Source: a virus. From it: 64,000 nucleotides of DNA. Positions within the stretch are counted from its first letter, which is position 1; every line of letters starts with the position of its first letter. Where the stretch lies: positions 283,393-347,392 of IMG/VR virus record IMGVR_UViG_3300042879_006196; one strand, written 5' to 3'. The notes under the pieces are model-generated. The model searched no databases. It had not been told where the DNA came from and saw only the letters and a program-made list of their open reading frames with translations. Below, one piece after another: positions 32,479 to 59,319 of this stretch. The position numbers were made by a program, and so were the translations under genes.

Positions 32479-33702
32479 ATGACACCAGGTGTCCGAATAC
32501 TTTTTATTGACATGAATTCCTTCTACGCCTCTGTAGAAGAGCAAGATAACCCAGGATTTCGTGGGAAACCCACTATTGTAGTGCCAGTTATGGCAGACAC
32601 ATCATGTGCAATCGCCGCTTCTTATCAAGCTAAAAAATTGGGCATCAAAACTGGCACACCTGTAGCTGAAGCTAAACGTATCGCACCCAATCTTAATGTA
32701 GTGCTTGCCAGACCTTCAAGATATGTTGACATTCACAATAAAATCCTCACAATTCTTAACACAATCTTCACGAAAGTAAAACCCTTATCTATTGACGAGT
32801 TTGCATGTTACCTTCCTGTAGATAATGCATCAGAGGAGTTTTGCTTACAATTGAGAGATAAAATTAATAAGCAAATCCAAAACACAATCGGGCATGAAGT
32901 AAAAGCTTCTTTTGGAGCTTCGTCTAATATTTTTCTAGCCAAAATTGCTTCAGAAATTATTAAGCCTGATGGCTTTGTTTATTTTGAAGCAAAAGATGCT
33001 CAAGAGAAAATGAAACATCTTAAATTAACAGATTTGCCAGGAATTGCCAGCAAAATGAATGCAAGACTTGGTTCAAGATTTGTTTATACTATAGATGATT
33101 TGTTTTCCAAATCCGCAAGTGAGCTTAAAGCTATATTTGGATCAATAATTGGCGAACAATGGTGGAGCATGCTTAGGGGAACTTTGAATCCAGATTATGG
33201 CATGTGGTATGGAAAAAAATTAAAATCCATTGGTCACTCACATGTTATTCCTCCACAAATGCGAAATGTGCCTCACACTTATGAAATTTACAAATCACTG
33301 GTGGAAAAATCATTCAATCGAATGAACACACACAATCTATATCCAAGTAAATTACATGTTGGCATATCATGTTATAAGCCAAAGCACAAATCTATTTATA
33401 TTGAAGCTGAAACCAAACATTTTAAACACACCGATAATTCAGATTCTCTTCGCGTGTATGCCGAAAGTGAATGGAATTGCATAGCACAAGGAATACCTGA
33501 TGATTATTATCCAAGAAAAGTGAGCGTAAGATGGACTAATCTATGTAATAAACAGGACATAATTCAACCATTGTTTGATTCAGATTGTGTTGAAAAATAC
33601 AAAAGTATCTACGACATTCCAGATAGAATTACATTTGGTGATCCACAAAGGATTTTTAAAGAAACCTGCAAGAATTCCCCATCCGCTTGTCGGTGGGGAT
33701 GA
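32479..33702 (+). CDS. dinB: Y-family translesion DNA polymerase (DinB/Pol IV-like)
   Basis: ILFIDMNSFYASVE is the Y-family catalytic N-terminus, and the downstream blocks SIDEF...LPGI follow. The last ~12 codons lie inside the left end of the TnpB element. Confidence 0.8.
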   Translation: MTPGVRILFIDMNSFYASVEEQDNPGFRGKPTIVVPVMADTSCAIAASYQAKKLGIKTGTPVAEAKRIAPNLNVVLARPSRYVDIHNKILTILNTIFTKVKPLSIDEFACYLPVDNASEEFCLQLRDKINKQIQNTIGHEVKASFGASSNIFLAKIASEIIKPDGFVYFEAKDAQEKMKHLKLTDLPGIASKMNARLGSRFVYTIDDLFSKSASELKAIFGSIIGEQWWSMLRGTLNPDYGMWYGKKLKSIGHSHVIPPQMRNVPHTYEIYKSLVEKSFNRMNTHNLYPSKLHVGISCYKPKHKSIYIEAETKHFKHTDNSDSLRVYAESEWNCIAQGIPDDYYPRKVSVRWTNLCNKQDIIQPLFDSDCVEKYKSIYDIPDRITFGDPQRIFKETCKNSPSACRWG

Positions 33703-35010
33703 ATTGCAGTAATTAGAAAATATTCTACTATTTTTCTAAAACATGTAGGTGATAGCAAATATTAAACTGTAAAAGAACTATATGTTGAAAGCATATAAGT
33801 TTTTGATAAAACCTGCGAAAGAGCAAAGTGAGATGTTTGAAAAACATTTTGGCGCTGCTAGGTTTGTCTATAACTGGGGCTTAGAACAAAAAACAAAATC
33901 TTATCAAGAAGGAAAGAAAACATTGACTTTTCTTGGATTAGGACCAGAACTTGTTAAACTTAAAAAAGAAAACATCTGGATGAAAGAAGTTAATAGCCAA
34001 TCACTATTGGCTTCTCTAAAGAATTTAGACAATGCCTACACTAGATTCTTTCGAGAAAAGAAAGGATTTCCTAAATTTAAATCAAAATACAATCCAAAAC
34101 AATCCTTCCAATGCCCTCAACATTGTACTGTAGATTTTGAAAAAGGATTGCTAAATATCCCTAAAGTTAAAAATATCAAAACTGTATTCCACAGACAATT
34201 TGAAGGAGATATCAAAACTGTAACGATTTCTAAAGTGCCTTCTGGAAAATATTATGTTTCTATCCTTGTGGAAGATGGAAAGTCTTTACAAATTAAACCC
34301 AAACTTGACAGAAACGATGCAATAGGTATTGACATGGGATTGAAAGATTTTGTAGTTACTTCAGATGGAGATAAGATTGCTAATCCGAAATATCTCAGAA
34401 AATCCGAAGAACGACTTGCAAGAAGACAAAGAAAATTAAGTGTAAAAAAGAAAGGGAGCAATAATAGAAATAAACAACGTAAAAAAGTAGCAAAGCTACA
34501 TAAAAAAATAGCTAATCAAAGAAAAGACTTTCTGCATAAAGTATCTCATCAAATAGTTCACAAGAATCACGGAACGATTTGTGTTGAAGACTTGTGTGTT
34601 AAAGGGATGGTCAAAAATAGAAAATTAGCTAAATCAATATCTGATGCAGGATGGGGAATGTTCTATAATTTTCTGAAATACAAATCAGAATGGCATGGAA
34701 AGAATTTCCTTGATATTGGAAGATTTGAACCATCGAGCAAGATGTGTTCAGTCTGCGGGAATATCAAATCAGATTTGACATTATCTGATAGAGAATGGAT
34801 ATGTTCTAAATGTGAAACAAAACACGATAGAGATATCAATGCTTCAATTAATATTCGGAACATGGCATTCACTAATCAGAATTTGGTAAGATGTATAGGA
34901 CTGGAACAGCCCGAATCAACGCCTGTGGAGAAGAAAGCTCTGGTTAGAAATAATGAAACTATCTTCTGCGAAGCAGGAAGCCTCACCCCTTGTGGGTGAG
35001 GTAGTTCACT
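33664..35010 (+). mobile_element. IS200/IS605-family TnpB-only insertion element (IS1341-like), copy 1
   Basis: The left end ACCTGCAAGAA-tt-CCCCATCCGCTTGTCGGTGGGG (imperfect hairpin) and the right end GAAGCCTCACCCCTTGTGGGTGAGGTAGTTCAC (perfect hairpin) are both conserved with copy 2 at 57990-59319. Confidence 0.7.
33782..34999 (+). CDS. tnpB: TnpB (OrfB) RNA-guided-nuclease-family transposon protein
   Basis: 405 aa. Has the N-terminal OrfB_IS605 region, RuvC-I GIDMGL, Glu in CVEDL, the zinc finger CSVCG...CSKC and RuvC-III DRDINASINI. Confidence 0.85.
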   Translation: MLKAYKFLIKPAKEQSEMFEKHFGAARFVYNWGLEQKTKSYQEGKKTLTFLGLGPELVKLKKENIWMKEVNSQSLLASLKNLDNAYTRFFREKKGFPKFKSKYNPKQSFQCPQHCTVDFEKGLLNIPKVKNIKTVFHRQFEGDIKTVTISKVPSGKYYVSILVEDGKSLQIKPKLDRNDAIGIDMGLKDFVVTSDGDKIANPKYLRKSEERLARRQRKLSVKKKGSNNRNKQRKKVAKLHKKIANQRKDFLHKVSHQIVHKNHGTICVEDLCVKGMVKNRKLAKSISDAGWGMFYNFLKYKSEWHGKNFLDIGRFEPSSKMCSVCGNIKSDLTLSDREWICSKCETKHDRDINASINIRNMAFTNQNLVRCIGLEQPESTPVEKKALVRNNETIFCEAGSLTPCG

Positions 35011-35033
35011 AATTAATTTTCGTATACATTATT

Positions 35034-57693: not shown

Positions 57694-57955
57694 AATCATT
57701 ATTGAAAATATAAGTTCGTTGCCTGATGACGAGGCAGTAAGATTAGTACAACGAGTAATGTCTGACGGTTTTCTTAGCAAAGAAACAATACAGGGAGAAA
57801 AAAATATCCCAAAGTATTGCCACGTCACTTCTTTCAAGGAAATGTCATCTTGTGTCAGACATATTGTGGAAGCAAGATCACGCAAAACAAAAACTTCTGC
57901 CTATTCATTCAGAGTTTACACTTCTTATATAGATTGTGTGGAGGAGGAATCATAA
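57688..57955 (+). CDS. Hypothetical protein (paralog of 56009-56278)
   Basis: MSRIIIENISSLPDDEAVRLVQRVMSDGFLSKETIQGEKNIPKYCH. This is the inner start of the 57635-57955 ORF. Confidence 0.4.
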
Positions 57956-57989
57956 TATGAAATTGCCAATAGGTTTTGATGAGCCAATT

Positions 57990-59319
57990 GTGAACTACCT
58001 CACCCATAAAGGGAGAGGCTTCCTGTTTCATAGTCGTTAGCAACCTAACAATTCCACAGGCGTTGATTCGGCTTGTTCCAAGCCTATAAATCTCATTAAA
58101 TTTTGACGATTGAATGCCATTTCTTTAATGTTGATAGCAGCATTAATATCACGATCATGTGTAACTCCACAAGGACATTGCCATACACGATCTTTTAATG
58201 TTAATTCTCGATTGACATAGCCACAGATAGAACAAGTTTTTGAACTAGGTTCAAATCTTCCAATATCTAATAACCATTTCCCATTCCATTCACATTTATA
58301 TTCTAAAAATGAACGAAACATTCCCCATCCTACATCGGATATGGATTTTGCTAATCTATGATTTCTGATCATTCCTTGTGTGTTTAAATCTTCTATACAT
58401 AACACATCAATTTGGTTCTCATTAACGAGTTCATGTGAGATTTTATGAAGGAAATCTTTTCTTTGATTAGAAACTTTTTCATGTAACTTAGCGAGTTTTA
58501 CTCGCTGTTTGTTTTGATTATTACTACCTTTATTCATTCTTGAAAATCGACGTTGCATTCGTTTTAATTTTTCTTCTGACTTTTTAAGGAAACGTGGATT
58601 ATTAATTTTGTCACCTTCCGACGTAATAACAAAATGTGTCAATCCAAGATCAACACCTATAGCTCTGTCTTTGTTGAGTTCTGGTTTAGCAGGAATATTT
58701 TCATCAATTTCAACTAATATAGAAGCATAATATTTTCCAGTAGATGATTTACTAATTGTAATTGATTTAACTTTTCCTTCAAAATGACGATGCAAAACAG
58801 CTTTAATATTTTTAGCTTTAGGAATTGAAATTGTATTTAATTCAAAATCCACAACACACGATTGAGGATTCATAAATGAAGACTTACTGAATTTCTTGCT
58901 TTTAAATTTTGGAAATCCTTTCTTTTCTTTAAAGAATCTACTAAATGCAGAATCCAAATTAGCAGTTACAGCTTGTAACGCTTGTGAATTAACATTTGTC
59001 AGCCAATGGTGTTCTTCTTTAAGTTCTTTAAGTTTTGCATCCATTTCAAATTTAGTTAATTTCTGTTTTCCATTCACATACATTTCTGTTTTCAGTTCAA
59101 GAAAATAATTATATACAAATCTCGCACAACCAAAAGAACTTTCAATTAATTGAATTTGCTCTTGATTAGGTTTGATTCTATACTTATATGCCTTAAACAT
59201 ATAAATAATTTCTGCTTATTTTCTAGTCACACCTATTTTTCGACTAGAAATTTTATAATATTTTTTAATAATTCAGCAATTCATCCCCACTGACGAGCAG
59301 ATGGGGCTTTCTTGCAGGT
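57990..59319 (-). mobile_element. IS200/IS605-family TnpB-only insertion element, copy 2 (inverted relative to copy 1)
   Basis: On the minus strand, the left end ACCTGCAAGAA-ag-CCCCATCTGCTCGTCAGTGGGG and the right end GAAGCCTCTCCCTTTATGGGTGAGGTAGTTCAC match the ends of copy 1. Confidence 0.7.
58037..59200 (-). CDS. tnpB: TnpB (OrfB) RNA-guided-nuclease-family transposon protein, copy 2
   Basis: 387 aa. RuvC-I GVDLGL, CIEDL, zinc finger CSICG...CPCG and DRDINAAINI. About 60% identical to copy 1 by eye. Confidence 0.85.
   Translation of the reverse strand: MFKAYKYRIKPNQEQIQLIESSFGCARFVYNYFLELKTEMYVNGKQKLTKFEMDAKLKELKEEHHWLTNVNSQALQAVTANLDSAFSRFFKEKKGFPKFKSKKFSKSSFMNPQSCVVDFELNTISIPKAKNIKAVLHRHFEGKVKSITISKSSTGKYYASILVEIDENIPAKPELNKDRAIGVDLGLTHFVITSEGDKINNPRFLKKSEEKLKRMQRRFSRMNKGSNNQNKQRVKLAKLHEKVSNQRKDFLHKISHELVNENQIDVLCIEDLNTQGMIRNHRLAKSISDVGWGMFRSFLEYKCEWNGKWLLDIGRFEPSSKTCSICGYVNRELTLKDRVWQCPCGVTHDRDINAAINIKEMAFNRQNLMRFIGLEQAESTPVELLGC

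Follow-up and report, generated by a model that had tools for sequence, protein, structure and literature searches.

What are the two tnpB genes that lie in opposite orientation within one 64,000-nt stretch of a viral genome (IMG/VR record IMGVR_UViG_3300042879_006196, positions 283,393 to 347,392; the whole stretch is referred to as the window), and how could they be maintained there? Both open reading frames (ORFs), which a first-pass annotation made from the sequence alone had described as intact genes in inverted orientation, were found: tnpB of copy 1 at 33782-34999 on the plus strand, encoding 405 aa, and tnpB of copy 2 at 58037-59200 on the minus strand, encoding 387 aa. We consider both copies to be non-autonomous, tnpB-only insertion sequences of the IS200/IS605 family (IS1341 type) which carry their own guide RNA, and we put the probability of this reading at about 0.88. 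The elements are intact and recently mobile, otherwise ordinary for their kind, and no new kind of system is added by them. The low-GC genome in which they reside is probably that of a huge phage.

The borders of the elements could be read from related contigs in which the insertions are absent. Copy 1 as a whole element measures 1350 bp (33660-35009, plus strand) and has an exact empty-site allele in the related contig L195, where the sequence reads GGATTTTTAA/TAATTAATTTTCG, i.e. TTTAA/TAATTA with the slash at the insertion point; the BLAST breakpoints are 33659/35010 and the flanks on either side of the site are 98.8% identical to the window. Copy 2 measures 1335 bp (57990-59324, minus strand), and its empty-site alleles are found in five contigs, L115-L119, reading on the minus strand TCATTTAC/AATTGGCTCATC. 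The site itself reads GAGCCAATT/GTAAATGATG in these alleles, which on the element strand is TTTAC/AATTGG. L115 and L116 are 99.2% identical to the window in the left flank of copy 2 and 97.7% in the right one, and L117-L119 are 94-98% identical. Comparison with the empty alleles revealed no target duplication at either insertion site. Copy 1 is inserted 3' of TTTAA (33655-33659, plus strand) and copy 2 3' of TTTAC (59325-59329, minus strand); both motifs belong to the flanking DNA outside the element and represent the transposon-associated motif (TAM), i.e. the left cleavage site. The junction of copy 2 is ambiguous by 2-3 nt and was positioned by means of its homology to copy 1 and the relatives, all of which end in GTTCA(C/T/A). 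Of the borders proposed earlier the right border of copy 2 at 57990 stands, while both left ends were a few bases off (33664 becomes 33660, and 59319 becomes 59324) and the end of copy 1 moves from 35010 to 35009.

Both insertions affect genes of the host replicon, and these genes also exist in nature in their uninterrupted form. Copy 2 splits a gene for an 87-aa protein, whose first 11 codons (MKLPIGFDEPI, with the ATG at 57957) are at 57957-57989 and whose remainder is at 59325-59555, both on the plus strand; the ORF called for this remainder in the window begins with an ATG at 59301, which belongs to the left end of copy 2. Excision of 57990-59324 in silico restores the 87-aa ORF in frame, MKLPIGFDEPI/VNDDG..., and the uninterrupted protein occurs naturally in public metagenomes (P0002-P0004), where P0001 (MGLSCRYI-VNDDG...) is the insertion-bearing form. 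The DinB-like polymerase gene (32479-33702, plus strand) has its last 14 codons and its stop supplied by the left end of copy 1. Excision of 33660-35009 in silico gives it the C-terminus ...RIFNN-stop, and natural 395-aa DinB-like proteins (P0007 and several others in the same 90% cluster) end in exactly this way, without the tail. Both insertions thereby yield chimeric host genes (59301-59555 and 33660-33702): the truncated 87-aa gene receives a new ATG and 8 codons (MGLSCRYI) from the left end of copy 2, and the DinB-like polymerase is longer by 14 additional codons from the left end of copy 1. The empty site of copy 1 was reached solely through the DinB-like protein cluster. An exact look-up of the NrdG-like protein found copy 1 present in every contig read, and a search for empty sites in IMG/VR with the restored 87-aa gene and the NrdG-like neighbour returned nothing useful.

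The structure of the ends is in accordance with the rules by which the family transposes. Terminal inverted repeats are absent and imperfect subterminal hairpins are present at both ends, as the IS200/IS605 family requires, and the left-end and right-end strings which had been noticed as shared by the two copies are located at the places given for them in both. According to folding, each left end consists of an imperfect hairpin inside an outer stem. The left end of copy 1 (33660-33709, plus strand) contains the guide tetranucleotide AATT at 33673-33676, directly followed by the hairpin at 33677-33698, and its outer stem is formed by CTGCAA (33666-33671) and TTGCAG (33704-33709); the fold energy is -22.8 kcal/mol (z -3.8). 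The left end of copy 2 (59276-59324, minus strand) has the guide tetranucleotide AAAG at 59310-59307 and the hairpin at 59306-59285. An alignment of 17 relatives shows compensatory changes in six of the nine pairs of the left-end hairpin. This hairpin is the TnpA recognition hairpin and not part of the guide RNA.

In IS608 of Helicobacter pylori, recognition of the cleavage tetranucleotide depends on a 4-nt guide that immediately precedes the hairpin foot on its 5' side, TTAC being read by AAAG (PMC3201880). Here the left-end pairs of site and guide are TTAA with AATT in copy 1 and TTAC with AAAG in copy 2, the latter identical to the pair of IS608 and the former different from it, and the right-end pair is TCAC with GAAG in both copies. 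The last position of the left pair switches together, C:G in copy 2 and A:T in copy 1. Such covariation of site and guide indicates that the insertion motifs are rightly assigned and that a Y1 TnpA made each insertion. IS608 resembles the two copies further in its subterminal hairpins at both ends and in cleavage 3' of the guide-paired tetranucleotide, and its spacing is similar, 19 nt at the left and 10 nt at the right end, compared with 17-18 and 8 nt here. It differs from them by encoding TnpA and by its right cleavage site, TCAA instead of TCAC; its right-end guide is GAAT.

The two TnpB proteins are 60% identical across 384 aa, the same degree of identity as was estimated at first. Both contain the Pfam domains HTH_OrfB_IS605, OrfB_IS605 (RuvC) and Cas12f1-like_TNB (zinc ribbon), and both exceed the cut-off of 425 bits of the curated NCBIfam model NF038281 (IS200_TnpB, "IS200/IS605 family element RNA-guided endonuclease TnpB"), copy 1 with 437.8 and copy 2 with 427.4 bits. 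The closest natural solved structure is TnpB of ISDra2 from Deinococcus radiodurans (PDB 8BF8, 8EXA and 8H1J; E 7e-71, residues 3-364), which in the PDB search is outscored by an AI-designed nuclease, 9YYG. The catalytic residues of ISDra2 TnpB are D191, E278 and D361, and its zinc cysteines C331, C334, C351 and C354 (PMC10097598). Aligned to these, copy 1 has D184/E269/D351 in RuvC and C322, C325, C341 and C344 in the zinc finger, and copy 2 has D184/E270/D351 and C323, C326, C342 and C344. The D-E-D triad and the CCCC zinc finger are thus the same as in ISDra2, which bears out the complete RuvC and zinc finger of the first-pass annotation; the catalytic residues, whose substitution it had named as grounds for abandoning its interpretation, are intact in both copies. 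The ratio of nonsynonymous to synonymous substitutions (dN/dS) is 0.13 between tnpB of copy 1 and that of a third relative, and 0.24 between copy 1 and copy 2, and the TnpB proteins are therefore under purifying selection. The closest TnpB relatives in the genome scan are at most 60% identical and scattered among methanogens, Patescibacteria and others, which gives no host signal.

Each element has tnpB as its only gene, and its right end at the same time supplies the 3' part of an omega-RNA of 99-116 nt. The scaffold of copy 1 (116 nt, 34894-35009, plus strand) scores 86.2 bits with the covariance model R1 (E 9e-20), and that of copy 2 (99 nt, 57990-58088, minus strand) 89.7 bits (E 1e-20). 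The underlying alignment was made from 24 elements (21 IMG/VR relatives, L122 from a sister genome and the two copies), of which the terminal 96-129 nt were used, with right-end anchors set by hand. In the RNAalifold consensus stem 1 falls within the coding region of tnpB, stem 2 is long-range and has the variable stem 3 in its interior, and stem 4 follows, which in copy 1 is the right-end hairpin at 34981-35001, shortly before the right cleavage motif TTCAC at 35005-35009. The minimum-energy fold of the copy 2 scaffold reproduces the consensus stems (z -3.0). Compensatory changes were found in 14 of the 17 pairs, for which 92.6% of the alignment cells are paired, compared with 34-44% after a shift of the partners by 1-3 columns; shifted partners give a covariation score of 0.09-0.16 and the true ones 0.757, a value which none of 500 shuffles reached. 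In addition, the loop of stem 1 (GAAC) forms a pseudoknot with GUUC at positions -6 to -3, just ahead of the guide. It is paired in 97.9% of cells, with the compensatory variants GAGC/GCUC, GAAG/CUUC, GAAU/AUUC and GGCA/UGUC. The position of the omega-RNA at the right end and at the 3' end of tnpB, anticipated from the sequence, is thus upheld by a structure of four stems and a pseudoknot which covaries across 24 elements. The expectation that the end hairpins encode this scaffold applies to the right-end hairpin, which is its last stem, and not to the left-end one. Similarly, overlap of the right end with the 3' end of tnpB is seen in copy 1, where the hairpin covers the stop codon TGA (34997-34999); in copy 2 the stop (58037-58039) is 47 nt upstream of the element end and it is the RNA scaffold that still overlaps the ORF.

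This architecture is that of the omega-RNA of ISDra2, whose scaffold of 116 nt likewise has four stems and a pseudoknot in which positions -5 to -3 pair with the stem-1 loop (PMC10097598). The RNAs of the window share with it the four stems, the stem-1-loop pseudoknot and the hairpin just before the guide, although the primary sequences are unrelated, and ISDra2 further differs in having its own tnpA and in its insertion motif, TTGAT instead of TTTAA or TTTAC. In Rfam the RNA has no matching family, even when E values up to 1 are admitted. The R1 model finds exactly the two copies in the window, the next match having 19.3 bits, and among 100 related loci it gives 50 matches, of which all but a few coincide with the tnpB 3' end and many are in sequences outside the set from which the model was built. 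That next match, the best non-cognate one (6398-6486, plus strand; rough E 0.005, GC 0.27), is located at a gene junction and is most likely due to chance. Separately, second strong matches were observed in L020 (1775-1903, plus strand) and L028 (1436-1533, plus strand), about 1.1-1.5 kb upstream of the matched tnpB, so that these viral contigs may possess additional or orphan right ends.

The guides had been placed in the 16-20 nt immediately 3' of GTAGTTCAC, and the sequences quoted for them are true flanks which match the empty alleles. The predicted 16-nt guide of copy 1, TAATTAATTTTCGTAT..., is flanking DNA at 35010-35025 on the plus strand, directly 3' of the element end, and is identical to the L195 sequence that follows TTTAA. 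That of copy 2, AATTGGCTCATCAAAA, is flanking DNA at 57974-57989 on the minus strand; in the empty allele of L115 all 25 nt compared after TTTAC match copy 2, and the sole difference in L117 is at guide position 7. Within the window the guides match perfectly at the native flanks alone, each of which is preceded by TTCAC, and no other site there pairs an insertion motif with a guide match at two or fewer mismatches. By analogy with characterized TnpBs, an omega-RNA is predicted to be expressed and to guide DNA cleavage beside the insertion motif. As two compact TnpBs (387 and 405 aa) with defined motifs, 99-116-nt scaffolds and base-exact ends, these proteins are suited for tests as small genome editors.

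Assignment to the IS1341 type depends on the transposase gene. A genuine Y1 transposase from the related locus L143 (Pfam Y1_Tnp, E 2e-36), used as tblastn query, detected no tnpA in the window among hits with E up to 10, nor did a motif search of the window. About a dozen loci, nearly all archaeal, were found by this query to have tnpA beside a related tnpB, and none of the phage-like loci was. Since neither the elements nor the window contain tnpA, the elements are classified as non-autonomous, tnpB-only IS1341 type and not as members of the autonomous IS605 group. In each element the start of tnpB follows the left end at a distance of only about 120 nt. Three other classes were considered and rejected: the IS607 family (the scores with NCBIfam IS607_TnpB, 197 and 189 bits, are far below its cut-off of 350, and there is no room for a second gene), an IStron (no group I intron match in Rfam, either at the gathering threshold or at E up to 1) and TldR, a nuclease-dead TnpB (the D-E-D triad is intact and both ends are complete). 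IS1341-type copies of ISCaje are known from the Campylobacter phages CP220 and CPt10 (PMC2853527). Like the window elements, they have tnpB as their sole gene and are annotated IS200/IS605 TnpB components in phages. Their DNA similarity to the window elements is only about 70% over about 220 nt; the window elements further have defined ends, insertion motifs and empty sites.

From what is known of the family, the following course of events may be proposed, in which transcription and processing of the RNA, cleavage of DNA and homing are all taken from characterized relatives. The omega-RNA would be made from the tnpB transcript, and about 16 nt of flanking sequence at its end would serve as the guide. 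TnpB with this RNA would recognise TTTAA (copy 1) or TTTAC (copy 2) followed by a guide match, that is, the empty site, which could arise by excision or could come on an insertion-free co-infecting genome. Repair of the cut from an element-bearing copy would then restore or spread the element. The occupied site would be self-protected, as TTCAC and not the insertion motif stands before its guide match. A move to new sites would need a Y1 TnpA in trans, because none is present in the window. TnpB2 of ISGst2 from Geobacillus stearothermophilus works with a TTTAT motif which is shared by TnpA and TnpB (PMC10055086). ISGst2 and the two copies have in common a five-base T-rich motif and a right-end motif one or two bases away from it, by which the occupied site is protected; the motif and the host are different, and retention by homing is experimental there and only proposed by us here.

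Several observations weigh against the classification given above or against parts of it. The second zinc pair of copy 2 TnpB is CxC instead of CxxC. No TnpA gene is present within the 64 kb that were read of a genome of at least 356 kb. The insertion-bearing contigs all look like one strain, and the empty alleles fit ancestral absence and precise excision alike. Covariation of the right-end hairpin could by itself reflect the single-stranded DNA form on which TnpA acts and not an RNA; the pseudoknot also covaries, however, and this goes beyond what TnpA DNA hairpins can explain.

On the side of recent mobility, the distribution of the elements in related genomes is uneven. Sister genomes (L122 and L191-L194) contain a third related element in opposite orientation, whose TnpB is 75% identical to the copy 1 protein; its tnpB is at 5424-6644 (minus strand) in L122 and at 6414-7634 (minus strand) in L191, between zeta-toxin/AAA_33-like and NrdG-like genes, and an empty site would be needed to place its left border. 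Insertions seem to favour the interval from the DinB-like to the NrdG-like gene, which has the look of a hotspot. For copy 1, the 407-aa fused form of DinB was counted on 28 contigs and 395-aa forms on about 30, mostly of the other lineage, and at the copy 2 site the insertion form is present on 41 contigs and intact forms on about 5. One sister genome appears to be without both copies: P0003 is on a 231.7-kb contig, the longest contig with the 395-aa DinB form P0141 has the same length, and from this we infer that the two proteins share the contig.

How, then, do the elements persist? It is possible, though we hold it as tentative and rather doubtful, that a huge phage without a transposase of its own relies purely on RNA-guided homing from one co-infecting genome to another for the maintenance and spread of both TnpB elements: TnpB with its guide would cut the insertion-free allele during co-infection, recombination would copy the element in, and TnpA would have been needed for the original insertions only. 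Lack of TnpA in the window and purifying selection on both TnpBs are consistent with this, as is the natural coexistence of insertion-free alleles, whose flanks are 98.8-99% identical (97.7% to the right of copy 2) and which carry the motif and a perfect guide match. The predominance of insertion contigs at the copy 2 site (41 against about 5) points in the same direction, but such counts mirror strain abundance and not drive. Moreover, since the left-end guide tetranucleotide fits each site by the TnpA rule, TnpA acted at least once per site. A review lists the phage route as theoretical and describes plasmid spread that is dependent on TnpB and independent of TnpA (PMC13565253). TnpB homing between co-infecting genomes has been proposed but is undemonstrated in phages, and could be studied in the field on the natural genome pairs that differ in the presence of each insertion; since insertion-free relatives with flanks 94-99% identical are present in freshwater metagenomes the idea is directly testable. 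Phage T4 possesses homing endonucleases, Seg and Mob, and if spread purely by homing were true the elements would be their natural reprogrammable counterparts.

Far less probable is that the TnpBs were domesticated, immobile and used by the phage for regulation or for conflict between elements in the manner of TldR. Regulatory relatives of TnpB encoded by phages are known (PMC10705468; PMC13418256), and purifying selection on both proteins is in keeping with this reading. TldR is nuclease-dead, however, whereas the catalytic triad is intact here; full TnpA-type ends are kept, the guides match their own empty sites only, presence and absence are polymorphic exactly at the element ends, and copy 2 interrupts a gene.

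It had also been suggested that the two copies, which lie in opposite orientation 23 kb apart, could flip the intervening block by homologous recombination, and this we find hardly credible, as they are only 65% identical in nucleotides with a longest identical run of 20 nt, all contigs read show a single arrangement, and the relatives without copy 2 are collinear with the window. The alternative suggestion, that the copies mark the edges of separately acquired segments such as the island adjoining copy 2, found no support either. L115, which begins at its contig end, has the right part of this island (55980-57989) at 99.2% identity next to the uninterrupted target gene, and the insertion of copy 2 was therefore independent of the island.

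The genomic surroundings of the elements are mixed. GC content of the window is about 30%, and the same proteins are found on contigs of up to 356 kb from freshwater-type metagenomes. Neighbouring genes of bacterial type include tmRNA, sigma-70, NusG, ClpP, DnaK, GatB, a tRNA synthetase and IF3, and those of phage type T4 RNA ligase 1, PNKP, DUF551, GH108, LAGLIDADG and many families known from PHROGs only. No capsid or terminase was detected among the large neighbouring ORFs with Pfam and PHROGs, and the term huge phage is for this reason drawn from gene content.

Some minor features of the window were also recorded. The impression that most genes, except those around 53-58 kb, lack a Shine-Dalgarno (SD) motif holds in a crude count: strong SD motifs precede several genes in the block 54070-57325, compared with 2 of the 61 genes called upstream of 48 kb. 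This block measures about 3.2 kb here and about 1.1 kb in L117 and L118, from which it differs, and L115 has at least the part from 55980. Another segment of 1.9 kb (48306-50248) is absent in L117 and L118, which are otherwise 95-97% identical, and its junction is without repeats; its two ORFs (48353-49789 and 49791-50231, both on the minus strand) adjoin a DnaK-like gene and have no Pfam or PHROG match. Downstream of copy 2 the 15-mer TCTGAGCGTATAWAA occurs on the plus strand in four perfect copies (59517, 60146, 60521 and 60869) and one degenerate copy (61483). It stands at the end of small genes and encodes ...SERI there; three of the copies directly precede the start of the next gene, and the one at 59517 is still within the split 87-aa gene, at its 3' end. 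A promoter of leaderless transcripts is one conceivable role of the 15-mer, a signature of paralogues another. Between the two elements a tmRNA gene (38142-38526, plus strand; Rfam 108 bits) encodes the tag peptide AKKNRRNGFGSAQAGFAMVA. In the same interval a tandem array at 43846-44687, with units of about 320 nt in 2.6 copies and 69% matches, is located amid small ORFs of the same strand and probably represents paralogous small genes.

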